A stretch of 64,000 nucleotides of DNA, taken from the NCBI RefSeq assembly GCF_024436035.1, contig NZ_JANFNG010000001.1, positions 15,689 to 79,688 on the forward strand. Reading direction: 5' to 3'. The DNA is from Streptomyces humicola (GTDB taxonomy: Bacteria > Actinomycetota > Actinomycetes > Streptomycetales > Streptomycetaceae). The translations under genes and the position numbers were made by a program. Within the stretch, counting starts at the first letter, position 1. Every line of letters starts with the position of its first letter. Under the pieces are notes generated by a model. That model was not told the origin of the DNA. It did not search any database and worked only from the letters and a program-made list of their open reading frames with translations. Shown piece after piece: positions 18,938 through 63,947 of this stretch.

Positions 18938-19954
18938 TCAGTACTGCTCGGTTTCGATGTACCCCGTGTCGTCGTCGGCGCCGAAGGCGCCCGCGGCAGC
19001 GGTGGTGTCGAATCCGGGCGGGCTGTCCTTGAAGGCCAGGCCCATACCGGCCAGCTTCGCCTTGACCTCGTCGATCGACTTCGCACCGAAGTTGCGGACG
19101 TCGAGCAGGTCGGCCTCGCTGCGCGCCACGAGCTCGCCCACGGAGTGGATGCCCTCGCGCTTGAGGCAGTTGTAGGAACGGACGGTCAGCTCGAGCTCCT
19201 CGATCGGCAGTGCGAGGTCAGAGGCTAGGGCGGCGTCCGTCGGGGACGGGCCCATGTCGATGCCCTCGGCGTCGATGTTGAGCTCGCGGGCGAGCCCGAA
19301 GAGCTCGACCAGCGTCTTACCGGCCGAGGCCATCGCGTCACGCGGGCGCATGGCCTGCTTGGTCTCGATGTCGAGGATCAGCTTGTCGAAGTCGGTGCGC
19401 TGCTCGACACGGGTCGCCTCGACCTTGTAGGTGACCTTGAGCGCCGGGCTGTAGATGGAGTCGACCGGGATCCGGCCGATCTCCTGGCCCTGCTGCTTGT
19501 TCTGGACCGCGGAGACGTAGCCGCGACCGCGCTCGACGGTCAGCTCCATCTCCAGCTTTCCCTTGCCGTTGAGGGTGGCGAGGACCAGGTCCGGGTTGTG
19601 CACCTCGACACCGGCCGGCGGGGCGATGTCGGCGGCGGTGACCAGACCGGGCCCCTGCTTGCGCAGGTACATCACGACCGGCTCGTCGTGCTCGGAGGAG
19701 ACGACCAGGCTCTTGATGTTGAGGATGAGGTCGGTCACGTCCTCCTTGACGCCCGGCACGGTGGTGAACTCGTGCAGCACGCCGTCGATCCGGATGCTGG
19801 TGACGGCAGCGCCGGGGATGGAGGAGAGGAGAGTGCGACGCAGGGAGTTACCGAGGGTGTAGCCGAAGCCCGGCTCCAGCGGCTCGATGACGAACCGGGA
19901 GCGGTATGCGTCCACGACCTCTTCGGTGAGAGACGGACGCTGAGCGATCAGCAT
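18938..19954 (-). CDS. rpoA: DNA-directed RNA polymerase alpha subunit
   Basis: 338 aa from [14 protein letters not shown] to the C-terminal alpha-CTD. It matches canonical actinomycete RpoA almost residue for residue. GGAGG RBS 9 nt upstream. No rpsK or rplQ neighbours. Confidence 0.9.
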
Positions 19955-20412
19955 GAGGTATTGCCTCCAGTTTTCGGCGCCCGCTATGTGATGCCGGTCC
20001 ACCGAGCGGTAGCCCGGTGTTGATACTGCAAGGCTACGGGCGTACGAGCTGAATAGCTTCGTACCACCCGTAATGGGGCGTGGCGAGCGCGCGACGATCT
20101 TCGTCAACCTGCGGCATCGATCGGAGTGCCAGGCGGTGGCGCGGCCGGAGCGCGATCTACCGGGCCGCCGCCCCGGGCGTCGAGGCTCATGTCCGGGTAG
20201 CGGACAGCGAACGACAAGTGGGGAGGCCATCGGCGTTCACTTCTGACTACCACGGTCACGCCTCAGTCACCGGACGCTGCTACGCGCGCAGCAGGGGGGC
20301 GTTTCATCCAGAGATGCAGGGAACGCAGAACGGCAGTCGACGATCGAAGCGTACGTTGTGCACGCCGGGCCGCACGTACCTACTGCGTCTCGGCTCGCCA
20401 CCGGAATCGTGA

Positions 20413-24944: not shown

Positions 24945-25046
24945 GCGGATGGGCCCCGGGGCGCGCCGGGCCCGTCCGTATCACCCTGCTCCTCAGGCAG
25001 CCTCCCCCGCCTCCTCGGCGACATCTCGACCCCGAACGGGAATAAA

Positions 25047-26441
25047 TTGACCTCCACGCTTTGCGCATCCACGGTGCTGAAGAACGCTCTCACGCACTAC
25101 CACGCAGAACTGCAGGACGCTATGGCGGCCTTGGAAGGCGACCGCGTCGAAGGCGACGAAGCCTTCTCGCCCGCCTTCCGCCTGCCCGACCCCAGTGCCG
25201 CCCTCGAGCGGTTCTTCTCGGTGTCCGACATCGGCGTCACCGAACTGCCCGCCTATCATGGTCACGCCCTCCGCCTTCTCGACTTGATGCGGAACCCGGG
25301 AACGCATACCACCAAGACGCTCGCCTCGCTCACCATCATCGCCCGGGCCGTGCGGCACATCACCGAGACCGGTGAACGCATCATGATCGTCACCCCGTCG
25401 TCCGCGAACAAGGCCACAGCCCTGCGTGACGCGGTTCATCGAGCCATTAGCGCTGGACTGGTGACGGAGAATCAGCTGCAGATCACCAGTGTGGTGCCCG
25501 CGGTGTCCACCGCCAAGCTCTGGTCGTCACCGTTGAGCGAGCACGCTGAGCTACGACGTCGCAATCCGCTGGTGGTGCACGAATCGGAAGAGCCGGCCTC
25601 GGTCAAGGAACTGGCGTCCGCGTTCGCGGCCGAAAACGCCGAACGTCTCCAAAGACGGTACGGCGTCCGTATCTGGTACACGCTCGGGCTCGACAACTAC
25701 CGGGCCGCGGACATGATCCGCGCGTTCGCCGAGCGGGACCTGCTGCCCGGAGCGGACAGCGGCACTCCAACCCGTACCCATGTCCACTCCGTCTCCAGCG
25801 CCTTCGGCCTGCTCGGTCATGACCTGGGGCACCGCAAGGTCACGGAAAACGGCTGCCGAACGCTGCCGCAGGCCCGCTATTTCCTCGTCCAGCACCTCGG
25901 CACTCCGGACATGGTGCTCAGTCTCCGCCATGGCACACACGACCGCGGAAACCTGCCCGTGTACCGCCTGGACCAGGCCGAGGGCCTGTACCGACAGGAC
26001 GAGGACCCGCACTTCCCTGCGACGACGTTTGATCCCGAGGAACAGCTCGATCCCACTTTCTACACCCGCCGTCCGGTCACCTCTGCGCAGATGGATAGCA
26101 TCATCGCCGCGCAGGGCGGAGGCGGCGTTGTCGTCTCGCTGCACGAGTGCCTGAGCCGGTACGCCGAAGTGCGCGCCCTGCTGGCCGATGCCGATGTCAC
26201 GTTGCCCGTCGACCCCCGACGGCTGCGCGAGTGGTCGCTCGTGATGGCGGTCACCGGAACCCTGAACGCCGCCGACCGCGGGCTGCTGCCGGACAGTGGC
26301 GACGTGCTGATCCACGGCTCCGGCAGCTACAGCGACCGGGATTACCATCCAGTGCCTGCCCATCACCGTTTCACGGCGGCGGACATGACGGCTCTTGCAG
26401 GCCACGTCGAGGACGCAGTCCGCGCCGCAACCTCCCGCTGA
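25047..26441 (+). CDS. divergent fold-type-II PLP-enzyme-like protein (threonine synthase / Trp-synthase-beta superfamily-like)
   Basis: By-eye alignment to ThrC. GVTELP aligns to EGGTPL. NPGTHTTKT aligns to NPTGSFKDR, and the Lys is retained. TPSSANKATAL...ISAGL aligns to ASTGNTSASAAAY..AGI, and the Asn is retained. Spacing is conserved. Confidence 0.35.
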   Translation: MTSTLCASTVLKNALTHYHAELQDAMAALEGDRVEGDEAFSPAFRLPDPSAALERFFSVSDIGVTELPAYHGHALRLLDLMRNPGTHTTKTLASLTIIARAVRHITETGERIMIVTPSSANKATALRDAVHRAISAGLVTENQLQITSVVPAVSTAKLWSSPLSEHAELRRRNPLVVHESEEPASVKELASAFAAENAERLQRRYGVRIWYTLGLDNYRAADMIRAFAERDLLPGADSGTPTRTHVHSVSSAFGLLGHDLGHRKVTENGCRTLPQARYFLVQHLGTPDMVLSLRHGTHDRGNLPVYRLDQAEGLYRQDEDPHFPATTFDPEEQLDPTFYTRRPVTSAQMDSIIAAQGGGGVVVSLHECLSRYAEVRALLADADVTLPVDPRRLREWSLVMAVTGTLNAADRGLLPDSGDVLIHGSGSYSDRDYHPVPAHHRFTAADMTALAGHVEDAVRAATSR

Positions 26442-41583: not shown

Positions 41584-43035
41584 TCAGTCGGCGAGGGCGC
41601 CCATGGGGTCCCAGGCGGGGAGGACGATCGGCGGTTGGTCGAGGGCGGCAGCCAGCTCCGGCGGCAGCGCGGAGCGCCGGACCGCGATCTCGAAGACATG
41701 CTCACCGAACCACGAGTCGTTCATGGTCCAGAAGCCCTTGTCGGCCTTCTCCTCACCCCAGCTGTTCTCCACCCGCCAGCGGCGCGGGCTCCCGTCCACC
41801 ACGTCGACGCCGGTGAACAGCATCGCGTGAGTCATCTGCGTGTCGTGGTGCAGCAGCCGGGCGGCCTTGTCCATGGTGAAAGGGGCGTCGTAGACGGCCG
41901 CGTAGTCGAAGAGCCCGGCGTCCCAGACACCGACGTCCGCGCGCATCATCTTGGCCACGTCGCAGCCGAACCACACCGGCTCTCCGCCGACGATCGCGTC
42001 CATGGCCAGCCGCTTCAGCAGCTCCATCTGCGCGTTGAGATAGACCACCGGCGGGGCGTCCACGATATTGCCCAGATACTCGACGGTGAAGGTGCGGCCC
42101 ACCGGGCTCGACTCACGCGGATCGTGCACCAGGCAGACGTACTCGTCCAGCGGCAGCTGCACATACGAGGCGGCGAACTCTGCCGGGGTGAGCCAGCCGT
42201 CGCGGTGGAACTCCCTGTCCTTGTCCTCCCACTGCCACAGGAAACGCTGCGGAGGCGTGCCGAGGTGGATGCTGAGCACCCGGTGGACGGCGGCCAGCAC
42301 CTCCCGCTTGCGCTCCCGCTGCGCTTCGACTCCCTCGGTGGCCTGCTCGCGCAGGTCGCGGGCGCCCTGGCGGAGCAGAGTTTGCAGGGCCCGGTTCATC
42401 GCCCGGGTCGCGGAGGAGCTGTCGGTCTCCGGCATGGCCGACTTGGGTACCAGGCCGTGCTTGGCGACCAACGCCACGAACATGTTCCACTGCCCGCCGT
42501 CACCGATGGGGTCCGCCAGCAGGTGCGCCACCGTGCGGTCGTCCACATCCCGGTCTGAGGTCTCGATGACCGCCTCGAAGAAGTGGTTCGCCCGTTCGAA
42601 CTTGTCCCACCAGAGCAGGTAGTTCTGGGAGAACTCGAAGTCCTTCACGCCCAGCTTCCGCGCGGCGCCGACCCGGAGCAGGTTGAGCCCGGCGAACATC
42701 CAGCAGCGCCCACTCTGCTTCTGGTTGGTGACCTTCCAGTCGTCCAGGTGGTGGGAGACCGAGTGGTCGATGCCGGTGAGGACCCGCCGGTCCAGGGCGA
42801 CATCGTCCACCGGTGTCTGAGTGACGGCGTTCTGCATCAGCTGGTTCACCGGCCGGGCGGCGAACTCCTTCTCGAAGAGCTTGAGCTGATCCGAGGTCAA
42901 ACTGCGATCCATGGCCTGACGAGAGTCATCGTTTCCGAAGGTCACAGCGGTCTGCCTCCAGTTCCCAGTGGTTCTCGAGCAGTCATCGAGAGGGGCGCGG
43001 CCCTCACCGTCGCACGGCCGTTCAGCCGGAGTCAA
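41584..43035 (-). CDS. aminopeptidase C / bleomycin hydrolase (C1B cysteine peptidase)
   Basis: QKQSGRCWMFAGLNLLR active-site Cys block. C-terminal His/Asn region. The start is uncertain; an internal M is at 42912. Confidence 0.8.
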   Translation of the reverse strand: MTPAERPCDGEGRAPLDDCSRTTGNWRQTAVTFGNDDSRQAMDRSLTSDQLKLFEKEFAARPVNQLMQNAVTQTPVDDVALDRRVLTGIDHSVSHHLDDWKVTNQKQSGRCWMFAGLNLLRVGAARKLGVKDFEFSQNYLLWWDKFERANHFFEAVIETSDRDVDDRTVAHLLADPIGDGGQWNMFVALVAKHGLVPKSAMPETDSSSATRAMNRALQTLLRQGARDLREQATEGVEAQRERKREVLAAVHRVLSIHLGTPPQRFLWQWEDKDREFHRDGWLTPAEFAASYVQLPLDEYVCLVHDPRESSPVGRTFTVEYLGNIVDAPPVVYLNAQMELLKRLAMDAIVGGEPVWFGCDVAKMMRADVGVWDAGLFDYAAVYDAPFTMDKAARLLHHDTQMTHAMLFTGVDVVDGSPRRWRVENSWGEEKADKGFWTMNDSWFGEHVFEIAVRRSALPPELAAALDQPPIVLPAWDPMGALAD

Positions 43036-43420
43036 CGGAGTACCGAAGGTGAGCCGCCACCGCCGAGAAGTGCCGCTCGCCCACCGACTGGACGGGCAGC
43101 ACGGGTGCTCAGCCGTAGGGGAAGCGGGCCGGGTCGGGGGCTGGGTGGCGCGGGCGTTCGCCGGCGGAGAGAGCGGCGGCGTACACGCCGGAGGCGGGGA
43201 CGATCTTGAAGCCTTGCCGGAGAATCCCGTGGGACGCCCTCTTCGCCGCCCGGATCAACCTCAACATCCACGCCATCCGCGCCACCGCCGAGAGCCGACC
43301 GATCGTCGACCCCGGCTCGAGCGCCTGACTGAGAGACCCTGCACACGGCGCCGCCGCCGGGCGCGGGACCGGCGTCGCACGCTCGGAGCAGCGGAAGAGC
43401 GCGACTCGTCGAATGGGGGA

Positions 43421-43948
43421 ATGGTGAGACCTATGGAGACATGGGATGCAATCACCTCGCGGCGCAACGTACGGGACTTCACCGACCGTCCGATCCCCGA
43501 CGAGGACCTCAGACGAATCCTGGAAGCCGGGCGCCGCGCGCCCTCCTCGCGGAACTGGCAGCCGTGGGACTTCGTGGTCGTGACCGAGCACGCCCAGCTC
43601 GCCGAACTGTCGAAGGTGTGGCGGGGCGCGGGATACGTGGCAGGCTCGGCGGCGACGATCGCGCTCGTCGTCGGCGTCTACGACGGCGCCGACGAGCGGG
43701 AACGCGCCCAGTACGATCTGGGGCAGGCCACCATGGCGATCATGGTGACGGCAGCGGACCTCGGTGTCGGGAGCGGCCATGCGGCGGTCGCCGACCAGGA
43801 CCTCGCACGCCAGGTCCTCGGCCTGCCCGCCGACCGGGAGTGCGCCTACCTGATCGCGCTGGGCTACCCGGCCGAACGACCGCTGAGCCCCCTGCAGCGT
43901 CCGGACCGTCGCCCGTTCGACGAGGTGGTCCACTGGGGCCGCTGGTAG
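43421..43948 (+). CDS. nitroreductase family protein
   Basis: RRNVRDFTDRPIPDEDL...RAPSSRNWQPWDFVVV nitroreductase signature. Confidence 0.8.
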   Translation: MVRPMETWDAITSRRNVRDFTDRPIPDEDLRRILEAGRRAPSSRNWQPWDFVVVTEHAQLAELSKVWRGAGYVAGSAATIALVVGVYDGADERERAQYDLGQATMAIMVTAADLGVGSGHAAVADQDLARQVLGLPADRECAYLIALGYPAERPLSPLQRPDRRPFDEVVHWGRW

Positions 43949-51699: not shown

Positions 51700-52080
51700 C
51701 TATCGCCTGCGCATGATCTGCGGCTCGAAGCTGCCCTCGCGATCGCGTGGCACGTCGACCTCGACCGGGCCGACCTCAGTGATGACGGTCTTCGACCGTG
51801 TTCCATCGCGTGAGTTCCCCGATCCAGCCCCGGGCTTGTCGCGCTTCTCGTAGCCAAGATGGCCGGTGCTCTCGCCCTCGAGGGCAGACTCCAGAACCCT
51901 TTTCGTCAGCTGTTGCAGCGGCCCACACCCGCCGGTCAGCTTGATGTCTTGGGCACGAGCACAGTCGACCAACTGTCCGGTCAACTCAACTGCTCGTCCA
52001 ACGCGTCCGGCTTCTGCTCGATCCGCTGGACTTCCTCAACCGCCTCGGCAGATGCGATCACATCGCTCATCAGGTGTTCT
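51700..52080 (-). mobile_element. IS256-family (mutator-type) transposase N-terminal remnant with internal stop, C-terminally truncated
   Basis: LQQLTKRVLESALEGESTGHLGYEKRDKPGAGSGNSRDGTRSKTVITEVGPVEVDVPRDREGSFEPQI is the classic IS256 block. An upstream piece (MSDVIASAEAVEEVQRIEQKPDALDEQLS) is separated from it by TGA. Confidence 0.7.
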
Positions 52081-52367
52081 TCCTTGATCGGGAGTTACAC
52101 CGATGACCGTACAGTCTCCGGTTGACGAGCGGACTGTGGAGGATCTCTGAATGAACTGGGGGAGTTGTGTCGGTGGCCGATTGGCGACGATGCCGCCGCG
52201 GCCTCTTGACCTGCATAGCCGGGTGATCGACTTCCTTTGCATCGTACTTGTCGCCGCGGGCGCGTTCCACGATGAGGAACGGCCAACGGAGTGCGGCCTC
52301 GTGGGGGCAGACAATGCATTAACCCTCCTGACAGGCCAGGGACGGCAACACAGCAAAGGAGCGGGAA

Positions 52368-53843
52368 ATGGCACTTCAGCGAGACGACTGGCTCGACGTA
52401 GCACGCAAGGTGGACTGGGAGTTCCGCTACGTCGATGAGCGCGAGGTGTATCCGGAGGTTGTCAGCGGTTCTCCGTGGTTGTCCCACGAGTCGTGGAAGA
52501 ACTGGGAGGAGGCGTACCGGAACACCTACCGCGAGTATGTTCAAAACCAGCTCGTCAAGGACGACTCCGTATTCGCGGTCCGGGACGCGCTCGGCAAGGC
52601 TAAGATCACGGAGCGGTTGGACCCTGCGTGGGTGCAGCTGGCAAAGTTCCATAACGGAGCGATTGCCCTCGGGGAATACGCTGCATGTCTGGGCGAGCTG
52701 CGAATGGCGCGCTTCGGCAGGGATGGCGCGTGGCGGACGATGGCGAACCTGGGTGCGCTCGACGAGATCCGGCACACGCAGATTCCGCTGATGATCGGTC
52801 AGGACCTGCTGAAGTTCGACTCCAGGTTCGACTGGACGCATAAGGCGTACCACACCAACGAGTGGGCGATGATCGCTGCCCGTCACCTGTTCGACGACAT
52901 GTTCACCGCTGCGAATGCGTTGGACACCGCGATTCAGCTCACGTTCGTCTTCGAGACCGGGTTTACGAACCTGCAGTTCATCGCTATGGCGGCGATGGCA
53001 GACGGTGCGGACGACCATGTGTTCGAGAAGATGCTGGCGAGCATCCAGACCGATGAGTCACGGCATGCTCAGCAGGGTCATCCTGTGCTGCGGACGCTGA
53101 TCGAGAATGGCGGCAAGGAATACGGACAGTACCTGCTGGACAAGATGTGGTGGCGGTCGTGGCGGATTTTCCTCGCGCTCACCGGCACATCGATGGACTA
53201 CCTGACTCCGGTTCATGCCCGTCGGCAGTCCTTCAAGGAGTTCATGGAGGAGTGGATCAACGACCAGTTCCTCAAGAACCTTGAGGAGTTCGGTCTGGAG
53301 AAGCCATGGTTCTGGGACCAGTTCGTGGAGGAGTTGGATCACGCCCATCACAGCTTCCAGCTCGGTTTGTACACCTACCGGCAGACTCTGTGGTTCGACG
53401 AGCCGGTGCCCAGCCCGGAAGAGCGGGCTTGGCTGGAGGAGAAGTACCCGGGCTGGACTGAGACGTACGGCTCCATCTGGGACAACATCGAGAAGATGTG
53501 GGATGAGCGCGGCGAACTGGGAACGCTGCCGTACTCGTTGCCGTCGCTGTGTAACCTGTGCCAGCTCCCGACGGCGTTCCGGGGGCCTGGCAAGAACACG
53601 GCATGCACTCTCGAGCACAACGGTCGGAAGTACCTTTTCTGCTCCGAGCCGTGCCGGTGGATCTTCCAGCAGCAGCCGGAACGTTTCGCGGAGCATCAGT
53701 CGGTCATCGACCGGATTTTCAAGGGCGACTGCCCCACGGACATCTACGCGGTACTGGACTGGATGGGCGTGGAGCAGCACGGAAAGGACCTCCACAACGG
53801 GGAACACCCGTGGCGGCAGAAGCGCGCGGCGGTGTCGGCGTGA
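52368..53843 (+). CDS. soluble diiron monooxygenase hydroxylase alpha subunit (TmoA/IsoA-like, group 2)
   Basis: Two diiron ligand motifs (E..DEIRH and E..DESRH). About 490 aa. AAGGAG RBS. Confidence 0.85.
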   Translation: MALQRDDWLDVARKVDWEFRYVDEREVYPEVVSGSPWLSHESWKNWEEAYRNTYREYVQNQLVKDDSVFAVRDALGKAKITERLDPAWVQLAKFHNGAIALGEYAACLGELRMARFGRDGAWRTMANLGALDEIRHTQIPLMIGQDLLKFDSRFDWTHKAYHTNEWAMIAARHLFDDMFTAANALDTAIQLTFVFETGFTNLQFIAMAAMADGADDHVFEKMLASIQTDESRHAQQGHPVLRTLIENGGKEYGQYLLDKMWWRSWRIFLALTGTSMDYLTPVHARRQSFKEFMEEWINDQFLKNLEEFGLEKPWFWDQFVEELDHAHHSFQLGLYTYRQTLWFDEPVPSPEERAWLEEKYPGWTETYGSIWDNIEKMWDERGELGTLPYSLPSLCNLCQLPTAFRGPGKNTACTLEHNGRKYLFCSEPCRWIFQQQPERFAEHQSVIDRIFKGDCPTDIYAVLDWMGVEQHGKDLHNGEHPWRQKRAAVSA

Positions 53844-53895
53844 GCATGTACTGGGATTTCCTGCTACCTGCTGAGCAAGAGCTGAAGGAGACGAC

Positions 53896-54144
53896 GTGAT
53901 TATCCCGCTGTACGGCTTCTTCGAAGGGGACTTTCTGGGTCTTGTGTTGATCGCGATGCCGGATCAGCCGGTCTCCACGCTGGCTGAGCAGCTTTCTGGT
54001 TGGGTGCTCGACCTGCGGGTGGATCGCACGGGTGGTGCGCTTGAGGTCCTGAACGAGGCCGGAGAGATTCTCGATCAGAGCAAGTCGATCGAAGAGGCGG
54101 GCCTAGGTTACGGCGACATGTTCCATGTGAGGCAGGCGGCGTGA
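53896..54144 (+). CDS. monooxygenase gamma subunit (TmoB / Toluene_X-like)
   Basis: 82 aa. Position and size match tmoB or isoB. GTG start with AAGGAG RBS. Confidence 0.5.
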   Translation: MIIPLYGFFEGDFLGLVLIAMPDQPVSTLAEQLSGWVLDLRVDRTGGALEVLNEAGEILDQSKSIEEAGLGYGDMFHVRQAA

Positions 54145-54494
54145 GCACTCAAGTCAGCAGCACGTGGGTTCAGGTGACGACGCTGGATGAACTCTGGGAG
54201 GGCGAGATGCTCCCGGTCAGTGTCGATGAGACCGACGTGCTGGTCGTGAACGCCGGGGGGACAGTTGTCGCTTTCGAGGACAGCTGCCCCCACGTGGGCA
54301 CCGCATTGTCCACGGGCACGTTCGACGGCAAAGAGATCATGTGCCCTTCGCATGAGTGGACCTTCACGGCGACCACGGGGAAGGGCATTAATCCGGCGGC
54401 TGCGTGTCTTCGTCGTTATGCGGTTCGGATCGAGGGCGAGGCCGTGTATATCAACCTGCACGACGTCCTGCAAGAGGAGAAGGGAATGGCATGA
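54141..54494 (+). CDS. Rieske-type [2Fe-2S] ferredoxin (TmoC-like)
   Basis: CPHVG...CPSHEW Rieske CxH/CxxH ligands. GTGA overlap with the upstream gene. Confidence 0.8.
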   Translation: MSTQVSSTWVQVTTLDELWEGEMLPVSVDETDVLVVNAGGTVVAFEDSCPHVGTALSTGTFDGKEIMCPSHEWTFTATTGKGINPAAACLRRYAVRIEGEAVYINLHDVLQEEKGMA

Positions 54495-54832
54495 CGGAAA
54501 ACGCTGACGAGCGCCGGACACTCAGTCAGGTTATCGAGCGCGGCGTCGGACCGGTGCTGCAGTCGACACCGCTGGGCAAGGCGATCATCGCGGCCATCGA
54601 GGAAGAGAACGAAGAGGTCTTCGTCGAGGACGCCGGCGCCTACTTCCGGGTGTTCGTGCCGGACGAGTGTCGGGTGACCCGTGAGGCGATCGAAGGCAAC
54701 TACGGCCGCAAGATCCGGTTTCCTGGCGATCTAGAGGTGATCATGTCCTCATTTGCCGGAGTCCTGTCTATGAGTCAGGACCGGGCTGTCTGGTCGCTTC
54801 CGCCACGGCACCTTTCCTCTTCAGGAGCGTGA
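54491..54832 (+). CDS. monooxygenase effector/coupling protein (MmoB/DmpM family, TmoD-like)
   Basis: 113 aa. GPVLQSTPLGKAIIAAIEEENEEVFVEDAGAYFRV resembles effector proteins. ATGA overlap with the ferredoxin gene. Confidence 0.6.
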   Translation: MTENADERRTLSQVIERGVGPVLQSTPLGKAIIAAIEEENEEVFVEDAGAYFRVFVPDECRVTREAIEGNYGRKIRFPGDLEVIMSSFAGVLSMSQDRAVWSLPPRHLSSSGA

Positions 54833-55845
54833 TGACAATGACCGAACGGAGCGAGAAGAAGCTCAAGACATACTCGATGCTCCAGACTGGTCGGAGGTTG
54901 CCGTCCAACTACGAGCTCGTGAGTTCGCGGCTGCACTACCACTACCCGCACAACTTCGAGCTCAGCAACGAGAACCCGGTCAGCAAGTGGTACTACCAGT
55001 ACCGCGAGTCGTCGCCGTTGCAGGCCCATGACTGGGAGGCTTTCGCTGATCCCCGTAGCACGACCTACCGGGGTTACAACGAGCTGCAGAACGACAAAGA
55101 GACCGTTGTCGACGGGCTCCTGCGAGAGATCGACGAGAGCAACTACGACGACGAATTGGCAGCCGAGTGGGTTACCTTCCTGCATCGCTGGTATGGTGCG
55201 TGGCGCTTTCCGGTGCACGGGCTGGAGATGATCAGTGCCTACGTCGGGCAGATGGCTCCGGTGTCTCGTATCACGAACGCTGGTGCGTTCCAGTCTGCTG
55301 ACGAGATGCGCCGGATCCAGCGAATCGCTTACCGTTCAGCGCAGCTGAATGCGCGTAGGGGAGGCTGTGAACCTGGCGAGCAGAAGGCGTTCTGGGAGGA
55401 TGGCGAGCCGTTCCAGGCGGTGCGGGAGCTCATCGAACGGGCGCTGATCGCGTATGACTGGGGCGAGGCGTTCACCGTGCTGAACCTGGTCATCAAGCCA
55501 CATCTCGATAGGTTGCTGAACGAGGAACTGGCAGGGGTGCTGGCTGCGACAAACGGCGACACCATGTTGCGTGAGATTCACTTCTCCCTCAACGAGGACG
55601 CGCTGTGGCATCGGGAATGGTCCCGCGAACTCGCGCGTGTCGCCATCGCTGACACTCCAGTGAATGCTGACCGGTTTGCTGCCTGGGTCGACGAGTGGCG
55701 ACCGAGGGCTGTCGCGGCAGTCGAGAGCTATGTGTCGGTCTTCGAGCAGGCGCCGGTTCGGGTGGATGCGAATGGGGTGTTCGCGCGGATCACGGCGGCT
55801 GCCGAGGAGGACGTGAAGGCGGCTCTCGCGACGCCGGTCGGCTGA
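54829..55845 (+). CDS. soluble diiron monooxygenase hydroxylase beta subunit (TmoE-like)
   Basis: ~338 aa all-helical protein directly after the effector, in the canonical group-2 operon position. Start overlaps the effector stop. Confidence 0.65.
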   Translation: MMTMTERSEKKLKTYSMLQTGRRLPSNYELVSSRLHYHYPHNFELSNENPVSKWYYQYRESSPLQAHDWEAFADPRSTTYRGYNELQNDKETVVDGLLREIDESNYDDELAAEWVTFLHRWYGAWRFPVHGLEMISAYVGQMAPVSRITNAGAFQSADEMRRIQRIAYRSAQLNARRGGCEPGEQKAFWEDGEPFQAVRELIERALIAYDWGEAFTVLNLVIKPHLDRLLNEELAGVLAATNGDTMLREIHFSLNEDALWHREWSRELARVAIADTPVNADRFAAWVDEWRPRAVAAVESYVSVFEQAPVRVDANGVFARITAAAEEDVKAALATPVG

Positions 55846-55924
55846 GCGGCGGAGTGTGGGCTGGAGGGTGAGCTCACGTCCGTAGATGTAACTCGAAACA
55901 ATCTCAAGGAGAACGGAGAGAATT

Positions 55925-56335
55925 ATGGCTGGAGAGCTGAAGTTCTTCTCGCCCGAATGGTGTGCTGCCGCGATTGAAGTGTGCAACGCGAGTGAGCGTA
56001 TGTACCAGGGTTTCAAGGACCCGAAGAACTTCACACACAGGATGGAGTTCGGGTGTACGGACCGGGACCTGCCTACGCATGTGGAGTGGAGGGAAGGCCA
56101 GGTCGTGGCCTGGGGTCCTGCGCAGTACGAAGAGTCGGACCTGTGGCTGAAGATTCACGCGGACATCGACACATGGCGTGATGTGGCCGAGGGCAAGATC
56201 GAGGGTGGGAAGGCCCTGATGGCCGGCCGGATCAAGTTCGTCAAGGGACCGATGTCGGCGGCGATCGAGAATGGCGGGGCGTTCAACGGCTTCCTCGCGG
56301 CCTGGGGTGATGTCCCGACCGACTGGGACGTCTGA
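55925..56335 (+). CDS. SCP2 sterol/lipid-binding domain protein
   Basis: SCP2 C-terminal pattern KALMAGRIKFVKGPMSAAIENGGAFNGFLAAWG. AGGAGA RBS. Confidence 0.7.
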   Translation: MAGELKFFSPEWCAAAIEVCNASERMYQGFKDPKNFTHRMEFGCTDRDLPTHVEWREGQVVAWGPAQYEESDLWLKIHADIDTWRDVAEGKIEGGKALMAGRIKFVKGPMSAAIENGGAFNGFLAAWGDVPTDWDV

Positions 56336-56858
56336 GCAGGAGTTCTGCACGAATAGGTGTGGGAATTGATGGAAGGCGGGTCGGTGTGCTGGTAGCTGGG
56401 GTGTTCATGTCGGCCGTGCTCGCAACTGGAGTCGGTGTGGCGGCTTGGCTTGACACTCGTCCACGTGCACAGACCCCGGGTGTTGATTCTGCAGCCGGAT
56501 GCACCCCGGTCCGCCTTCCGTTCCCCAAGGGTCGACGGGCTGCACGTTGGTGACGATACTGCTGTGATCCTTCGTCCCAGTGCACGCCTTGCCGGGAACC
56601 TGGCAGCGGCAGGCCGATGCATTCCTGGAGGATCTGCAGATTTCACCCCGGGTGACGAACTGGCATCGGAAATATTCCGAGGGCGGTACGTGTCCTGCTG
56701 GCGGTGCTGCTCGGACTGGTTGCGTTTGAGTATGGCTGGTGTAGTCGTAGCGGCGGATGCGAGGCGGTCTTCTCCTACTCCAACTCGGTGTCCACCCCTT
56801 GAATGGGGCGAGGACGCCAGGTCGGATATCCCTAATGGCGCAGGATTCTTTTGAGGTG

Positions 56859-57317
56859 TCAACGATGAAAGCAGCAACGAAGAAGGACTATGGAGTCTCC
56901 CTCTACGACGGGGACCTTTCGAACGGTCTCGCCAATATTTTGGCAACGCTGCTGGCACAAAACTTCGAGAATTTCCCGGAGCGGGTGAAGATAGCTCGGC
57001 GCATGCCGCGGCCAGTGGCTGTTTACAGCACGGATACCGACAGCACTGCAACGATCGTGTTCGGTGCAGAGGAGGCCGTCATTTACAACGATCTGGTCGG
57101 CCGTCCCAGTGTGCTGGTGAAGGCCACCGTCGACCAGATTCTCGATGTCTCTCAGCTCAAAATGGTCGGTTCCGGTCTTGTCCCGGTCGGTTTCTTCACC
57201 AGGCGTGGTGTTCGTGTACTTGGTGAGATTGCCAAGCACCGGCTCGTCGTCAAGGGTCTGCTCACCCACACGGTGATGTCGCTGCAGCTTATCGCCCTGT
57301 TGTCCATCGCTGAATGA
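56859..57317 (+). CDS. second SCP2-like domain protein (low similarity)
   Basis: Pattern VLVKATVDQILDVSQLKM...GFFTRRGVRVLGEIAKHRLVVKGL resembles the SCP2 C-terminus. GAGGTG RBS. Confidence 0.35.
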   Translation, partial: STMKAATKKDYGVSLYDGDLSNGLANILATLLAQNFENFPERVKIARRMPRPVAVYSTDTDSTATIVFGAEEAVIYNDLVGRPSVLVKATVDQILDVSQLKMVGSGLVPVGFFTRRGVRVLGEIAKHRLVVKGLLTHTVMSLQLIALLSIAE

Positions 57318-57507
57318 GAGAAGGCCGGAGGAGAAACGCCACAATTGCGAGGTGGCTTGCGAGGTGGCGGGGTACGCGGTTGCCGGCCGGACGAGAAGTA
57401 TTTTATGCAGCAGTGTGTGGTGGAGCGCTGACAGCATGCGCTCAGTGCCTCGGGGTCGTGGCCGTCGATTGGTAAGGGCCTATAGTGCACGCGCGAAAGG
57501 ACGCGAT

Positions 57508-58116
57508 GTGAGTAGTCATGCGAAAGCCCAGTCCCTGTACAGCCGAACAGATGTGACGTTGCCGTTGCGGGTGAAGAGGGCGGGCCCGGTAACGCGGGTT
57601 CTTCAGGTAGTGGTCATCCTCGCCCTGATCCCGGTGGGCGCGTTCTATCTGTATCCCCGGATATATAATCTTGTGGCCACGCCGTATCGATTGGACAAGG
57701 CGGTGGTCTATGCAAACCGCTACAACCCTGGACTCTTCAAGATCGTGAACGAGGAACAGGTGACTTTGCAGGCATTCGGCGCTCTCGATCAGATGAACGC
57801 AGCCATCGCGAGGGTCCAGGGTGTCGATTCCCAGGTCGCGGACCAGCTGAGGACCTTGGTGGGGCAGATCAGGGGTGATCTGCAGGCGACCTTGAATTCG
57901 GCGGACGGGGACGTGAGCGGTCTTGTCAGCAGCCTCAACGCGTTGGACGCACGGTTGGAGGGACTCAATCCTCCCGTGGACGGAGCAACCAGCGCTGTGG
58001 CACGAGATCGGGCAACGCTTGCCGGGATCCTCGACGAGGCACGGGCTACCGCCGCGAAGGTGCATACCGCCCGGGAAGAAGCGGACGGCTCCGCTCAGAA
58101 TGTTTCTGGGCATTAA
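57508..58116 (+). CDS. membrane-anchored alpha-helical protein, paralog 1 of 5 (unknown function, DUF948-like?)
   Basis: N-terminal TM (VLQVVVILALIPVGAFYLY) followed by an A/Q/L/T/V-rich helical repeat region. The GTG start was chosen inside ORF 57352..58116. Confidence 0.45.
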   Translation: MSSHAKAQSLYSRTDVTLPLRVKRAGPVTRVLQVVVILALIPVGAFYLYPRIYNLVATPYRLDKAVVYANRYNPGLFKIVNEEQVTLQAFGALDQMNAAIARVQGVDSQVADQLRTLVGQIRGDLQATLNSADGDVSGLVSSLNALDARLEGLNPPVDGATSAVARDRATLAGILDEARATAAKVHTAREEADGSAQNVSGH

Positions 58117-58127
58117 CTCGTAGGGAG

Positions 58128-58664
58128 ATGACCGTGTTTTTCGGACGTGCACACGGCCCGGCCCGCATGATTTTGGCCATTGCCGCTGTTGGTGTACTTG
58201 GTCTACTCAGTTTCGTCGTGTTCAACCTGAACCACCGTCTGGACAACCAGCAACGCGCGAACTTGCAGACCTTGGCGGCATCGAAAGCGATCGTCGAAGT
58301 CAACGACAAGGTGACCGAACGCCTGGCCCAACTCACCGCACTCACAGGTACGGCGCGTCAGGCGGTGAGGCAAACCCAAGGGCTGGAACCGCTGTTGGAG
58401 CAGCTGAAGACGGCTGTCCAGCCCGCCGCGGCAGCGGTTTCCACCGGTAGCTCCGGCGCGCAGACCAGCAACCGTCAGCTCACAACGATCCAGAACGTAC
58501 TCAACGAGGTACGCGACAAGGTCGTTCCCTTGGTCGATTCGGCGGGCAAGTTCGGCGACCAGGGAAAACAGCTCGTGTCGATCGTACAGGGACTCGTGTC
58601 CGACCTGCAGGGCGCTGTGGCCGACGCGAAGACGATTAACCAGTCACTGCCACTGCCCAGCTGA
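58128..58664 (+). CDS. membrane-anchored alpha-helical protein, paralog 2 of 5
   Basis: GGGAG RBS. TM (MILAIAAVGVLGLLSFVVF) then Q/A/T/L-rich helices. Confidence 0.55.
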   Translation: MTVFFGRAHGPARMILAIAAVGVLGLLSFVVFNLNHRLDNQQRANLQTLAASKAIVEVNDKVTERLAQLTALTGTARQAVRQTQGLEPLLEQLKTAVQPAAAAVSTGSSGAQTSNRQLTTIQNVLNEVRDKVVPLVDSAGKFGDQGKQLVSIVQGLVSDLQGAVADAKTINQSLPLPS

Positions 58665-58711: not shown

Positions 58712-59284
58712 GTGAACAGGCGCACGGATATCCCAGACTCGGTGCTACGAAGCTCAAGCACCGTGGCTATCACCACCGAGTGGATGGGGAAGATTGCCGC
58801 CATCATCGCCATAGCACTTTTCTTCCTGGTGATGACGGCTATCCACAAGGGCCTGCTCGTGCAAAGCAGCGCACGATCGATTGTTCAGAACTTCCACACC
58901 ACCAACAATTTTTTCGCCACCCGGGCGGACTTCAATGACCCGGCACTGGCAAAGCAGGAACTGCAAACGCTGGCCGGAGTGCTGACTCAACTCAATGGCA
59001 CCACGGTGCAGGATGTGAATGACCTCGCAGCGACTCTGCCGAACGTCGCCCGTCTGCTGGATGCGGGCAAGGGCGATGTGGACATCGCCAAACAGATGCA
59101 GGGTGTGGCCGGCACGCTGCAGGGTTCGGCCAGCAGCTTGCACCGGATCGCCGGGGGTGCCGAGGGCAGCGTCTCCACCGTCAACAATTCGCTGGCCGCG
59201 GCTATCAACCTGGTCGGTCAACTCAACGCGCAGCTTGCCATTACTGAACAGAAACTGTCAGTACTGCCCGCGACAGGGAGGTAG
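58712..59284 (+). CDS. membrane-anchored alpha-helical protein, paralog 3 of 5
   Basis: TM (IAAIIAIALFFLVMTAI) then repeats such as LQTLAGVLTQLNGTTVQDVNDLAATLPNVARLL. Confidence 0.55.
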   Translation: MNRRTDIPDSVLRSSSTVAITTEWMGKIAAIIAIALFFLVMTAIHKGLLVQSSARSIVQNFHTTNNFFATRADFNDPALAKQELQTLAGVLTQLNGTTVQDVNDLAATLPNVARLLDAGKGDVDIAKQMQGVAGTLQGSASSLHRIAGGAEGSVSTVNNSLAAAINLVGQLNAQLAITEQKLSVLPATGR

Positions 59285-59289
59285 AACCC

Positions 59290-59943
59290 GTGCTTACCAA
59301 GAAGGTCTGGTTCGCGACAGTGGCCACCCTGGGAGGCGGGGCGTGCATTGTCATCGGAATGCTCAACCGATTTGTTCCCCACCTGCAGGACCTCTCCGAC
59401 CCGCTCGGTAGGCCCTCCGCACTGAGTCTTCAGGTCATCCACTCGGCCAGCCAGTTCGACAGCATCACCTCGGTGCTGGTACCCAAGCACCACGACTTGG
59501 GCCAGCGCATCCAGGTACTGCACACCGTCGCCGACGACCTGGACGGGCTGGTGAACAAGGCCGGCGGCCTGGTGCCTTCGGCGCAGGCGGTCAACGGCGA
59601 TACCACCACCGTTCAGGGTGTTGCCACGCCGCTGCCGCCGCTGATCAACAAGGTGACCGGGCGGGCTCAACAGGCCACTCCGCAGGTGAATGCGCTCGGT
59701 AACGCGGTCTCTTCGGTGACGACACAACTGAACGCGGTTGACGTCAACATGACGGCCATTGCCACGGACCTCGGCGCGCTCGGTCCGCGTGCGCAGGAGA
59801 TCGTCGCGATACTTCAGGAGATCGAAGCGGAGTCAGAACGCATCCGGCCTGTCGCTCCGCTGCTGCCGGTGCTCAGCACGGTGACCAACATCACCTCCAG
59901 CAACGGCCAACCGATCCTTGGACTGCTCGGCCCGCTGACGTGA
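59290..59943 (+). CDS. membrane-anchored alpha-helical protein, paralog 4 of 5
   Basis: GGGAGG RBS. TM (VWFATVATLGGGACIVIGML). Similar TVQ/QLN-type repeats. Confidence 0.55.
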   Translation: MLTKKVWFATVATLGGGACIVIGMLNRFVPHLQDLSDPLGRPSALSLQVIHSASQFDSITSVLVPKHHDLGQRIQVLHTVADDLDGLVNKAGGLVPSAQAVNGDTTTVQGVATPLPPLINKVTGRAQQATPQVNALGNAVSSVTTQLNAVDVNMTAIATDLGALGPRAQEIVAILQEIEAESERIRPVAPLLPVLSTVTNITSSNGQPILGLLGPLT

Positions 59944-59979: not shown

Positions 59980-60507
59980 ATGTTCCGGCTCTCCTGGGCC
60001 ATTACCCTTATCTTCTCGCTCGGCATGCTGACGGGAATCCTGGTTGTCACACGGGACCTTGCCGAGACCAACGCCATCTTCAAAGACGGCGTCGTTCAAG
60101 CGGAGAAGGTCAACTCCACCACCGATACAGCGTTGGGTGCGACCGGCCAGCTGCCGCCCGCAGACAAGGCGATCGGCCAGGGACTGCCGCAGGTGGTCGA
60201 TGTTCTCGGTTCGCTGAGCAAGGCGCAAACCACGCTCGGCACGCTGGGCAACCAGCTCGGTAATCTCGGCACCGTGCTCACCCGAGCGGATCCGCCGCTG
60301 GTGGGAATTATTGGTGCCGCACAGCAGTCAACCAATCAGGCCAATGCGGCCGCCGCTCCTGCCGCGTCGATCGTGCGGCTGCTCGCCCAGGCGGATCAGC
60401 GAGTACAGGCCCTGGCCCCGCTTTTGGACCAGACCGCGGCACGTGCCCGGAACATCAACTCCAAGCTCCACGTGTTGATGCTGCTGCCGGGCTCCGGAGG
60501 CGGCTGA
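59980..60507 (+). CDS. membrane-anchored alpha-helical protein, paralog 5 of 5
   Basis: GGGAGG RBS. TM (LSWAITLIFSLGMLTGILVV). Similar helical repeats. Confidence 0.55.
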   Translation: MFRLSWAITLIFSLGMLTGILVVTRDLAETNAIFKDGVVQAEKVNSTTDTALGATGQLPPADKAIGQGLPQVVDVLGSLSKAQTTLGTLGNQLGNLGTVLTRADPPLVGIIGAAQQSTNQANAAAAPAASIVRLLAQADQRVQALAPLLDQTAARARNINSKLHVLMLLPGSGGG

Positions 60508-60860: not shown

Positions 60861-61140
60861 ATGTCGCCGCTGCGCTGGACGGTGAAGTCGATCCGACAGC
60901 TGGCTGTCGAGCTTTCCGGTCATGGCCACCGCGTCGGCCGCGACACCGATCGTGACCTACTGCGCGCTGAGGGCTTCAGCAGGCCAACGCCAAGGCTCTG
61001 GAGGGCAGGTAGCACCTGGCCCGCGACGCGCAGTTCCGCTACCTCATCGAGCAGGCCCGCGAGCGCCGCGATACCGGGAAGTCGGTCATCGGTACGGACA
61101 CAGCCGCCGAAGCGGAGGAGATCATCCGGCGCTGAGGGAG
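60861..61140 (+). mobile_element. ISAzo13-family transposase remnant (in-frame TAG plus frameshift, truncated)
   Basis: MSPLRWTVKSIRQLAVELSGHGHRVGRDTDRDLLRAEGFS is followed by LQANAKALEG-stop-HLARDAQFRYLIEQARERRDTGKSVIGTDT. This matches the ISAzo13 N-terminus. Confidence 0.55.
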
Positions 61141-62022
61141 CAGGTAGTCCATCGAACAGGCGATCACGGACGCGAAGGACCTTCCTCGGCACCGGCGGCG
61201 CGCGCAGCCGCACCGACCAGGCGCTGGAAGTCGCTGTTCCCTTTCAACTCGACTGTCGAACCGTGCTGGTGCTCTGGTACATCCGCGCCGGCAACGCTCA
61301 ACGCGACGTCCGCGCCCGCCGCGCAGCGGCCCGTGGTACCGCCCCAAGCAGCACGTCTCCCTTCAAGGCAACGATCACCGCATTCCAGCGGGCCCGGATT
61401 ACCGCAGCCGCCAGGCCAACCCGGCTTCGTGCTATTCCACAACGCCCCACTGACCCGTGCCGCTCCCGCCGCGTAACGGCGAAACTTTAGTTCCTCATTT
61501 GTCCTCACACCGCCGTTCCGCAGGAAGGAACGTCTCCTGCGGACAGGCCGAAGCCACAGTAAATACAACCGGAGATTTCTCTGTGGGTTGGGGTCGGTCG
61601 GGCCAGCGGTGCATGTGAGGAGGTAGCGCGTGTTCTCGTCGACGCTCTTGTGGATGTGCGTCCGGACCGCATCTGGAGATCGAGTCGAGGTACGGGCGGG
61701 CGTGAGATTTCGTCTTGGAGGGGGAGGGGCCTAAATCACGTACGTCGACGGTCAGGGGCCGTGCCGGGGCGCACCCTGCCCAGTGGATCGGCCGCAAATG
61801 TCAAGGCCAACCAGGCATCGAGGTGTCTTTTGTGTGCCTATCGGCCGTACTGCTTTGCGGGGGGGAAGCTGCCACGGGTAAGGCAGCGCAATCCGACAGG
61901 CGTGCATCAGGTCCAAAGTGGCGTACCGGCAGGGCCCACCCTCCGACCACCCTCGACCGGTGTGCTCCGTGTGGGGCTGTTGCACTACTGACGTACGTGG
62001 CGGGGAGACCGAGGTGCCCGAT

Positions 62023-62796
62023 ATGAGGGATGTGCCTGTGAACCGCTCCACTGTCGACGGAGGGCTGAAATCAGTATGGGCCGCGCTGGAACTGCTGGAC
62101 TGTTTCGAGGCCGCCCATGAGCTTGGAGTCTCCGACATCGCCCGACAGTTGGGTGTCGCGAAGAGCACTGCTCACCGGCTGCTCACCACGTTGTGTGCCC
62201 GCGGGCTGGTTGAGAAGAACCCGCAAAGCGGGCAATACCACCTGGGTTTGCACTTGTTGGAGTTGGGCCTGCTGGTGGCGGGCCGCTTCCGGCTCCGTCA
62301 GGCCGCGCTGCCGTTGCTGGAAGAGCTGCGGCAGCGTACCGGCTGCACGGTCCACCTGTCGGTCCCAGAGGGTGCGGACGTTTTGTTTGTGGAGCGTCTC
62401 CAGTCGCTGAACGGAATGCATCTGCTGGCCAACGTCGGACGGCGGCTGCCGGCACACTGCACCAGCTCAGGTAAGGTGATGGCGGCCTTCGACGCCACCC
62501 TTGCCCGGCAGCGACGTGAGGCCGGATTCCCCGTCCTCACGTCTTCCACAATTCGCACTCCGGCCGTCTGGGATCGGGTTCTTGTCGAGACGCGACGGCG
62601 CGGGTTCGCAGTCAGCCGCGACGAGATGACGGTCGGGCTGACGTCATTGGCTGCACCGCTCCGCGACAACGCGGGGCGGGCCCGTGCAGCGATCTCCGTC
62701 GTCGGACCGACTCGGGAGGTCGGAGACAGCATTGAACGCTCGGCGCGACTGGTGACCGAGGCTGCGCGCAAGCTCAGCCGCCGCCTGTGCCTGTGA
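62023..62796 (+). CDS. IclR family transcriptional regulator
   Basis: N-terminal HTH (ELGVSDIARQLGVAKSTAHRLLTTL). C-terminal IclR effector domain. Confidence 0.8.
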   Translation: MRDVPVNRSTVDGGLKSVWAALELLDCFEAAHELGVSDIARQLGVAKSTAHRLLTTLCARGLVEKNPQSGQYHLGLHLLELGLLVAGRFRLRQAALPLLEELRQRTGCTVHLSVPEGADVLFVERLQSLNGMHLLANVGRRLPAHCTSSGKVMAAFDATLARQRREAGFPVLTSSTIRTPAVWDRVLVETRRRGFAVSRDEMTVGLTSLAAPLRDNAGRARAAISVVGPTREVGDSIERSARLVTEAARKLSRRLCL

Positions 62797-63158: not shown

Positions 63159-63947
63159 GTGAACGCAGTCGCTCAGGCAGAGGCAGCCGATCTGCTTTTG
63201 TCTGCCTACGAGTCCCGGGTTCCGGTGGATCCGTTGGTGGAGAAGTACGGAGGGCTCACGCTGGACGATGCGTACGAGATCCAGCTGCTCCAGATCCGCC
63301 ACCGGATGATGGCCGGAGCCACGGTGAAGGGGCACAAGGTGGGCCTGTCGTCACCCGCCATGCAGCGGCAGATGGGCGTCAGCCAGCCGGACTACGGCCA
63401 TCTGCTCGATGACATGTTCTGGCTCGAACACCTACCGATCCCGGCCGACCGGTTCCTTCAGCCACGGGTCGAGCCGGAGGTCGCTTTCGTGCTCAAGCGT
63501 CCGTTGCAGGGACCCGGTGTGACGGTTGCCGAGGCAGCTGCGGCAGTCGACTTCGTCCTGCCCGCACTCGAGCTCATCGACAGCCGGATCCGGGACTGGA
63601 AGATCAGCATTTTCGACACCATCGCGGACAACGCGTCATCGGGCGGCGTGGTGCTCGGCAGCACCCTCACGCGTCTGTCTGCAGTGGATCTGCGTCTCGT
63701 TGGCTGCAACCTGCACAAGGACGGTGAGCTCGTTGCCACGGGCGCGGGCGGCGCGGTCCTGGGGTCGCCGCTGACGTCGCTGGTGTGGCTGGCCAACACG
63801 GTCGGCGCGCATGGCGTCGCACTGGAGGCAGGACACGTCGTGCTGCCCGGTTCTGTCACCGCGTCGATCCCGGTTCGCGGAGGCGACAGCGTGACCGCCG
63901 CCTTCGCCGGGCTCGGCAGCGTGACCGCGCGTTTCACGGAGGAGTGA
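63159..63947 (+). CDS. 2-keto-4-pentenoate hydratase (MhpD/XylJ/BphH family)
   Basis: GTG start. Hydratase/FAH-family blocks (LDDAYEIQ, EPEVAFVL, AAVDFVLPALELIDSRI). Confidence 0.8.
   Translation: MNAVAQAEAADLLLSAYESRVPVDPLVEKYGGLTLDDAYEIQLLQIRHRMMAGATVKGHKVGLSSPAMQRQMGVSQPDYGHLLDDMFWLEHLPIPADRFLQPRVEPEVAFVLKRPLQGPGVTVAEAAAAVDFVLPALELIDSRIRDWKISIFDTIADNASSGGVVLGSTLTRLSAVDLRLVGCNLHKDGELVATGAGGAVLGSPLTSLVWLANTVGAHGVALEAGHVVLPGSVTASIPVRGGDSVTAAFAGLGSVTARFTEE

Follow-up and report, generated by a model that had tools for sequence, protein, structure and literature searches.

How a monooxygenase operon of Streptomyces humicola obtains its electrons when no reductase gene adjoins it, and what two genes for SCP2-like proteins are doing where that reductase would be expected, are the questions raised by a 64-kb stretch of the genome of this organism (contig NZ_JANFNG010000001.1, positions 15,689 to 79,688 of the forward strand). 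We refer to the whole stretch as the window and count coordinates from its first nucleotide. The operon encodes a soluble diiron monooxygenase (SDIMO), and the genes that follow it are here named S1, S2, and M1 to M5. The reading that we judge probable is that two units lie side by side: a five-gene SDIMO operon that has no reductase gene of its own, and an independent, mobile, seven-gene cassette for the handling of hydrocarbons.

The monooxygenase operon consists of five co-oriented genes on the forward strand in the tmoABCDE layout and is a group-2 SDIMO. The first gene encodes an alpha subunit resembling TmoA and TouA (52368-53843, 491 amino acids; Pfam Phenol_Hydrox, E = 1.1e-60, plus YHS) and is followed by genes for a TmoB-like small hydroxylase subunit (53896-54144, 82 amino acids; Pfam TmoB, 30.8 bits against a gathering threshold of 25), a TmoC-like Rieske [2Fe-2S] ferredoxin (54141-54494, 117 amino acids; Pfam Rieske, E = 2.7e-18, 66 bits), a TmoD-like effector or coupling protein (54491-54832, 113 amino acids, with the start taken from the gene call; MmoB_DmpM, E = 1.9e-18), and a TmoE-like beta subunit (54838-55845, 335 amino acids, from the gene call; Phenol_Hydrox, E = 5.9e-59). 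Among structures in the PDB, alpha matched TouA of toluene/o-xylene monooxygenase (ToMO; 1t0q, E = 3e-147) and TmoA of toluene 4-monooxygenase (T4MO; 3dhg, E = 1e-145), and it matched phenol hydroxylase and methane monooxygenase far worse. By motif reading, the diiron ligands of alpha are intact (E103, E133-x-x-H136, E196, and E230-x-x-H233), and the ferredoxin carries the Rieske motif C49-P-H51 ... C68-P-S-H71. The alpha, beta, TmoB-type, Rieske ferredoxin, and effector components of a group-2 system were therefore all found, but an operon-encoded NADH oxidoreductase was not. Compared with TouABCDEF of ToMO and TmoABCDEF of T4MO, a six-gene cluster restated in PMC13603553, the operon shares the gene order A-B-C-D-E, the five protein families, the diiron ligands, and the Rieske ferredoxin, but it differs in that the sixth gene, for the Fer2/FAD/NAD oxidoreductase, is absent from the operon, from the 64-kb window, and from 8 kb beyond. 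Because the operon adjoins a gene for an IclR-family regulator and a meta-cleavage lower pathway, its substrates are probably aromatics of the benzene, toluene, or phenol type.

The missing reductase gene is not accounted for by displacement to elsewhere in the window. No TmoF/IsoF-type reductase was found in the 64 kb either by tblastn with IsoF/TmoF-type queries, Gordonia IsoF included, or with a profile of nine TmoF/IsoF-type sequences from related loci that was run at E <= 10 against six-frame open reading frames (ORFs). Both approaches also drew a blank in the 8 kb downstream of the window (L002; loci are designated by L numbers). With the profile, neither the relatives L008 and L011 nor any of 80 metagenomic loci gave a match, and the sole match was the expected reductase of the relative L010, where the gene lies 3.5 kb downstream. 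The initial annotation of the window had reported a group-2 operon without a linked NADH:ferredoxin oxidoreductase gene, and the empty searches of the window and of the 8 kb downstream bear it out. Reductases of other types were also considered. Ten ORFs in the window are of reductase-like size, and their Pfam matches included ApbA (ketopantoate reductase), DUF6002, TauD, an AAA ATPase, a nitroreductase-family protein, and an RpoA paralogue. When the Pfam scan was taken together with about 44 translations of likely genes, it yielded only ApbA, the nitroreductase-family protein, and non-redox families. We note that a distance of 8.4 kb separates the nitroreductase-family flavoprotein gene (42920-43945, forward strand) from the SDIMO operon downstream of it and that a gene of this family is also found about 6 kb upstream in an Acidimicrobiales relative (L032 1-248, reverse strand). 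This proximity is probably a coincidence, and we know of no nitroreductase-family protein that serves as a ferredoxin reductase.

That no reductase is linked to the operon characterizes the clade and is no oddity of this Streptomyces locus, as none of 80 metagenomic relatives carries one when searched systematically for the FNR type (Fer2/FAD/NAD). The 80 loci were retrieved with alpha as the query, and their alpha subunits are 50 to 84% identical to it; both alpha and beta are present in 52, at least 1.5 kb of sequence follows beta in 39, and at least 3 kb is available on both sides in 19. S1 and S2 are present in just 1 of the 80. In the metagenomic loci that were inspected, the genes after beta encode histidine kinases, response regulators, a PucR-type regulator, and similar proteins. 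Soil metagenome contigs L039 to L117, with tmoABCDE-type genes and alpha 50 to 73% identical, contain neither a reductase nor SCP2 genes within up to 10 kb, and in these contigs genes for PAS histidine kinases and response regulators often stand directly after beta. The nearest relative, an Acidimicrobiales contig with alpha 84% identical, likewise has no reductase within 10 kb on either side. Gene surveys limited to contigs that bear the full tmoABCDEF set would overlook this entire reductase-less clade, and heterologous expression of its enzymes would need a separately chosen reductase.

How NADH electrons reach the Rieske ferredoxin follows from the clade as a whole. Because its operons as a rule lack an NADH:ferredoxin oxidoreductase gene, we infer that the electrons must be passed on by a reductase whose gene lies elsewhere in the genome. 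Supply in trans had been one of two options offered in the initial annotation, and with no linked reductase found, it is the only one left. The option is plausible, since T4MO is reportedly active in Escherichia coli from tmoABCDE alone, with tmoF only increasing activity, a result said to go back to Yen and Karl in 1992. In characterized group-2 operons, to our knowledge, beta is followed by the reductase gene (tmoF, touF, isoF, or xamoF). The earlier statement that every characterized operon has this order therefore holds as far as we know, but it does not extend to the uncharacterized relatives.

What follows beta in S. humicola is S1, a gene of the SCP2 family. S1 (55925-56335, forward strand), the first gene of the cassette, encodes a protein of 136 amino acids with 7 tryptophans. 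It starts 79 nucleotides past the beta stop codon and is preceded by a good Shine-Dalgarno sequence (AAGGAG...GGAGAG). The protein exceeds the gathering threshold of Pfam SCP2 (PF02036; 25.5 bits against 21.3, E = 1.8e-5), its family profile matches the SCP2-like PDB chains 1wfr (2e-6) and 2cx7 (4e-6), and its homologues fall into 43 clusters at 54 to 94% identity. The description of an SCP2 gene with a strong ribosome-binding site next to beta was accurate. The second SCP2-like gene that had been proposed is S2 (56865-57317, forward strand), which encodes a protein of 150 amino acids with a hydrophobic C-terminal helix and is the constant partner of S1. S2 has no match in Pfam or NCBIfam and no sequence match in the PDB, and it did not reach the SCP2 threshold when PF02036 was run on both proteins. 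Failure at the level of hidden Markov models (HMMs) had been named beforehand as grounds for abandoning the SCP2 assignments; S1 passes, and S2, which fails by HMM, has the alpha/beta SCP2 fold at the fold level even though sequence profiles are silent. The second SCP2-like gene thus stands as a fold and not as a profile match.

S1 and S2 were considered as paralogues, but hhalign gave a probability of 0.08%, or 0.1% with larger alignments, and no sequence relation between them is detectable. Neither protein matches any FAD- or NAD-binding Pfam family. Moreover, with three cysteines in S1 and none in S2, neither could carry a [2Fe-2S] cluster. Absence of a signal peptide suggests that both are cytoplasmic, and through its hydrophobic C-terminal helix S2 could attach to a partner or the membrane.

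The gap between S1 and S2 is 529 bp long (56336-56864) and noncoding, much as the initial annotation had it at about 520 bp. No Rfam family matched at E <= 1, and no promoter or terminator pattern was found. The gap was also considered as a decayed gene and rejected, as it held no protein remnant and tblastn with the optional cassette protein Y (described below), reductases, the module proteins, and 25 neighboring catabolic proteins gave matches at chance level only. Relative to the 241-bp gap of the otherwise collinear Streptomyces sp. NPDC005202, about 340 nucleotides right after the S1 stop codon (56341-56677) are extra; with 61% GC, this stretch contains no ORF showing coding bias and matches no RNA family. 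A gap of about 517 bp is found at the same position in Rhodococcus opacus pHG203 (L021).

The remaining five genes of the cassette encode membrane proteins and are all on the forward strand: M1 (57436-58116), M2 (58134-58664), M3 (58712-59284), M4 (59290-59943), and M5 (59980-60507), which is the last. Each protein begins with a short, mostly basic N terminus, spans the membrane with a single helix, and has a helical domain about 150 residues long. The hydropathy peak of M1 lies at residues 55 to 73, ahead of its helical C-terminal domain, and the transmembrane segment of M2 lies at residues 12 to 30. By the positive-inside rule, the M proteins are probably oriented with the N terminus inside and the C terminus outside, such that the helical domains would face outward. 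When the M1 to M5 proteins of the window and of Gordonia were compared with Pfam at E <= 10, only sub-threshold matches of the coiled-coil type were obtained. M2 in particular gave repeated weak matches to Perilipin, below threshold (E = 0.034 and 0.0044), and its AlphaFold2 model is all helical with a pLDDT of 49.8. M2 homologues form 53 clusters, every named one of which is actinobacterial, and M1 orthologues hold the same position in loci with the full cassette. The five were considered as close paralogues, but profile similarity between them is weak and confined to M4-M5 (hhalign, 47%) and M3-M4 (12%).

Some loci carry an eighth member, Y, which is absent from the window. Y is a protein of 336 to 410 amino acids with about four predicted transmembrane segments, an internal duplication, and no Pfam family; a fusion of M-like units was considered for its origin, but Y has no profile similarity to the M proteins. 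Its gene may precede S1, follow S2, or lie between the two, and it may coexist with M1 to M5. Instances are L032 10405-11463, L003 8729-9739, L034 10996-12087, L036 10160-11392, and L037 ~8409-9410.

Where else the cassette occurs separates it from the monooxygenase. A scan with one genome per species recovered 25 loci with a relative of S1, and S2 follows S1 in all 25. M1 to M5 come next in fixed order, as in the window, in 14 of the 25, and 12 have an SDIMO alpha gene no more than 10 kb away. A comparative search for SDIMO loci with SCP2 genes near beta had been suggested with the initial annotation, and the same junction of ABCDE with S1 was found in the closest relatives, L008 and L010. 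In the Acidimicrobiales contig that is the nearest relative, the order is ABCDE-S1-Y-S2, followed by the same meta-cleavage genes as in S. humicola. Four loci, however, have the order A-(B)-C-D-E-reductase-S1-S2, namely, those of Nocardioides aquiterrae (L012), a Nocardioidaceae metagenome-assembled genome (MAG; L014), R. opacus pHG203, and a metagenomic contig (L034). Thus, S1 and S2 were added to the reductase and not exchanged for it, and the proposal that they occupy its place is not supported.

The cassette is also not tied to one kind of oxygenase. In Gordonia isoprene clusters (L004 and L013), it follows isoABCDEF-aldH-gshB-CoA-disulfide reductase-AraC. S1 and S2 adjoin StyA/StyB flavin monooxygenase clusters at L023 to L026, L031, L036, and L118, and StyA/StyB precede the cassette both in five loci of Rhodococcus and on the annotated plasmids of two strains, R. 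opacus 1CP and Gordonia rubripertincta CWB2. In Rhodococcus JVH1 (L003), S1 and S2 adjoin a P450 system and a catechol dioxygenase. Because S1 and S2 also accompany StyA/StyB and P450 systems, the association is with a class of substrate rather than with the SDIMO hydroxylase. As read from these neighborhoods, what the cassette loci share is a kind of substrate, namely volatile hydrophobic alkenes and aromatics of small size, and not a kind of oxygenase. Carriers of the cassette include Rhodococcus, Gordonia, Mycobacterium-related bacteria, Nocardioides, Streptomyces, and Acidimicrobiia. The arrangement can vary, and in an Acidimicrobiia MAG (L020 2462-7156), M1 to M5 come first and are followed by S1 and two tandem copies of S2 (65% and 69% identity to the S2 of the window). 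In the explanation that we favor as a whole, the cassette is a self-contained mobile actinobacterial module that travels with any oxygenase type, with or without a reductase.

The seven genes had been noticed before in another setting. PMC13101518, citing Heine et al. 2018, describes seven hypothetical proteins that are styrene induced in R. opacus 1CP and G. rubripertincta CWB2, and the only property given there is that five of them probably contain a transmembrane section. S1, S2, and M1 to M5 correspond to these seven genes: tblastn matched them gene for gene to 1CP (L118) and CWB2 (L036), in the same order and orientation, at 45 to 68% identity. The styrene clusters of 1CP (pR1CP1) and CWB2 (pGCWB2) are therefore like the window in having seven orthologues in one order, five of them with one transmembrane segment, but the cassette of the window follows an SDIMO operon in Streptomyces and not StyAB(CD). 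Moreover, CWB2 and pRHL2 of strain RHA1 carry Y before S1, whereas the window has no Y. As far as we know, the published 1CP and CWB2 accounts contain no fold assignment, and SCP2 is assigned to S1 and S2 here. In the literature searched, no paper connects monooxygenases of the SDIMO, isoprene, or styrene type with SCP2 or sterol-carrier proteins. Thus, the earlier impression that the arrangement is undescribed was half right: the genes themselves are on record as styrene-induced hypothetical proteins, but the SCP2 component and the SDIMO association of the set appear to be unreported in that literature. A further protein of this kind of setting is SZ00_06083 of Rhodococcus sp. AD45, which has 157 amino acids and no conserved domains, is strongly isoprene induced, and has relatives in Rhodococcus JVH1 and R. 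opacus PD630 (PMC4676930). Both of the latter strains also carry S1 and S2.

Operon and cassette together make up an 8.7-kb segment of the window, from 52.0 to 60.6 kb, and as a component of the same favored explanation, this segment is probably a horizontally acquired island of two units. Its GC content is lower than that of its surroundings, dropping from about 67% to about 61% across 52 to 60.5 kb, compared with about 68% for the window. At the left edge lies a fragment of a Mutator-family transposase gene (51700-51984, reverse strand; Transposase_mut, E = 8.3e-19, profile positions 11 to 96 of 379), and at the right edge lies a decayed fragment of the ISAzo13 family (60861-61490, forward strand; DDE_Tnp_ISAZ013, E = 2.9e-7, ORF residues 1 to 43 only). 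Upstream of the island are genes for transketolase and 6-phosphogluconate dehydrogenase. Downstream, the gene for the IclR-family regulator (62023-62796, forward strand; HTH_IclR and IclR_C) stands ahead of the meta-cleavage operon, the first gene of which is of the 2-oxopent-4-enoate hydratase type (63159-63947, forward strand; FAA_hydrolase). Genes of the DmpF, DmpG, 4-oxalocrotonate decarboxylase, tautomerase, and aldehyde dehydrogenase types continue the pathway beyond the window.

A sister locus in Streptomyces sp. NPDC005202 (L007 8156-10245, compared with window 52324-57356) has a clean 2.66-kb deletion that joins alpha codon ~124 to beta codon ~186, and the SDIMO there is destroyed because of it. 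S1 and S2 are retained with 84 to 86% DNA identity to the window, and S1 is 94% identical. Similarity ends with S2, and M1 to M5 show just 44 to 55% protein identity. These features place a recombination breakpoint between S2 and M1.

Elsewhere in the window, a full-length gene for RNA polymerase alpha (18941-20236, reverse strand; RNA_pol_A_bac, RNA_pol_L, and C-terminal domain) is possibly a second rpoA. Its neighbors, judged from their translations only, encode a predicted carboxypeptidase and a zinc-finger protein and are not ribosomal-protein genes. A gene with a DUF6002 match at E = 1e-193 (24945-26438, forward strand) adjoins genes for a TauD-family dioxygenase and a PanD-like protein, the latter also recognized from its translation only; this small cluster has no relation to the monooxygenase.

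How the cassette would assist an oxygenase can be suggested from the folds, topology, and neighborhoods of its products and from the published styrene induction. We propose that the cassette binds the hydrophobic substrate, or the reactive first product, at the membrane and that it may move the bound compound from the membrane to the cytosolic oxygenase or buffer it on the way. Its role would be substrate handling and not electron transfer. The main live alternative, which we hold to be rather unlikely, is protection against solvent stress, in which M1 to M5 coat or stabilize the membrane and S1 and S2 bind toxic hydrocarbon or epoxide out of harm's way. Styrene, isoprene, and toluene-type aromatics, the substrates associated with the cassette, are all membrane toxic, and the styrene induction given in PMC13101518 is equally compatible with protection. 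The weak matches of M2 to the perilipin helical region would also suit a coat, and PF03036 is on record for P0183. The perilipin matches are below the Pfam threshold, however, and the cassette sits inside catabolic operons, co-oriented and with short gaps, rather than in general stress regulons. Present data otherwise fit protection and delivery alike. Perhaps, instead, the cassette serves a plasmid or mobile element and is only carried along on catabolic islands. It is found on 19 Rhodococcus or Gordonia plasmids, often with transposases nearby, but this is most improbable given the styrene induction in two strains (again from PMC13101518), the insertion of the cassette among co-oriented catabolic genes in unrelated clusters, and its chromosomal location in several genomes.

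Two further alternatives concern the missing reductase. The initial annotation had entertained a variant system in which hydrophobic-ligand carriers are coupled to the hydroxylase, and SCP2 proteins that replace the reductase or form a specific complex with the hydroxylase would indeed define a distinct SDIMO. S1 does occupy the slot that tmoF, isoF, or touF fills in characterized operons, at the short distance from beta given above, and the junction recurs in L008 and L010. Comparative data largely refute the idea and leave it with very little probability: a reductase and S1-S2 coexist at four loci, S1-S2 also accompany StyAB and P450 systems, and 79 of the 80 reductase-less metagenomic relatives have neither S1 nor S2. 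The cysteine content of the two proteins and the absence of FAD- and NAD-binding Pfam matches argue in the same direction. Alternatively, the reductase may have been lost recently in a rearrangement mediated by insertion sequences, with the operon now inactive or decaying. Transposase fragments flank the island, the NPDC005202 locus has suffered a deletion of just this clean kind, and in L010 a reductase gene remains 3.5 kb downstream. Recent loss is nevertheless improbable, as all five SDIMO ORFs are intact with their catalytic motifs, the Acidimicrobiales relative has the same reductase-less layout, and absence of the reductase is general in the clade.

Several points weigh against the two-unit reading that we prefer. 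The 529-bp gap separates S1 from S2 to M5, and S2 to M5 may or may not be cotranscribed with the monooxygenase. Styrene induction is as readily reconciled with solvent stress as with delivery. The systematic search in relatives was aimed at FNR-type reductases (Fer2/FAD/NAD) only, and a reductase of another type may lie nearby. The M2 model is of low confidence and gives no more than a rough view of how the membrane part is built, and the orientation of the M proteins is taken from a single rule, that of positive charge inside.

Why the cassette matters is that the uptake and safe presentation of small, volatile, membrane-toxic hydrocarbons in Gram-positive degraders are little understood, and the cassette bears on both. 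The styrene-induced hypothetical set can now be approached through structure, with two SCP2-fold carriers and five membrane-anchored helical proteins, and its distribution is now far wider, taking in isoprene, styrene, toluene-type, and P450 oxygenase clusters. Its function is now open to ligand-binding and knockout work in tractable strains.

Free-standing SCP2 proteins that serve hydroxylases would have a precedent. The SCP2-like domains of alkyl sulfatases (Pisa1 and YjcS) and of Eis acetyltransferases are C-terminal and fused to enzymes, unlike S1 and S2. The closest analogy is UbiJ. This SCP2 protein presents hydrophobic intermediates to hydroxylases, and the likeness would be one of function and fold and not of family. 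S1 and S2 have no sequence similarity to the SCP2 accessory proteins of ubiquinone biosynthesis, UbiJ and UbiT, with 9 to 13% identity in structural alignments; pathway, gene context, and partners differ, and quinone binding by S1 or S2 is without support. The membrane part may be likened to the Mce lipid-uptake systems, which also have side-by-side single-pass proteins with long helical extracytoplasmic regions and act on hydrophobic substrates, but the cassette has no MCE domain, YrbE permease, or MceG ATPase, and M1 to M5 have no Pfam match to Mce families. We speculate, more tentatively than for the two-unit reading, that S1-S2-M1 to M5, with Y as an option, form a dedicated hydrocarbon-capture machine that hands styrene, isoprene, benzene, or toluene via two SCP2 carriers to cytosolic oxygenases and, jointly with this, that a large soil clade of toluene-type enzymes works without a dedicated reductase gene. 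Such a capture machine, if real, would do for hydrocarbons what Mce import does for lipids and would parallel the substrate-presenting complex of UbiJ and UbiK.

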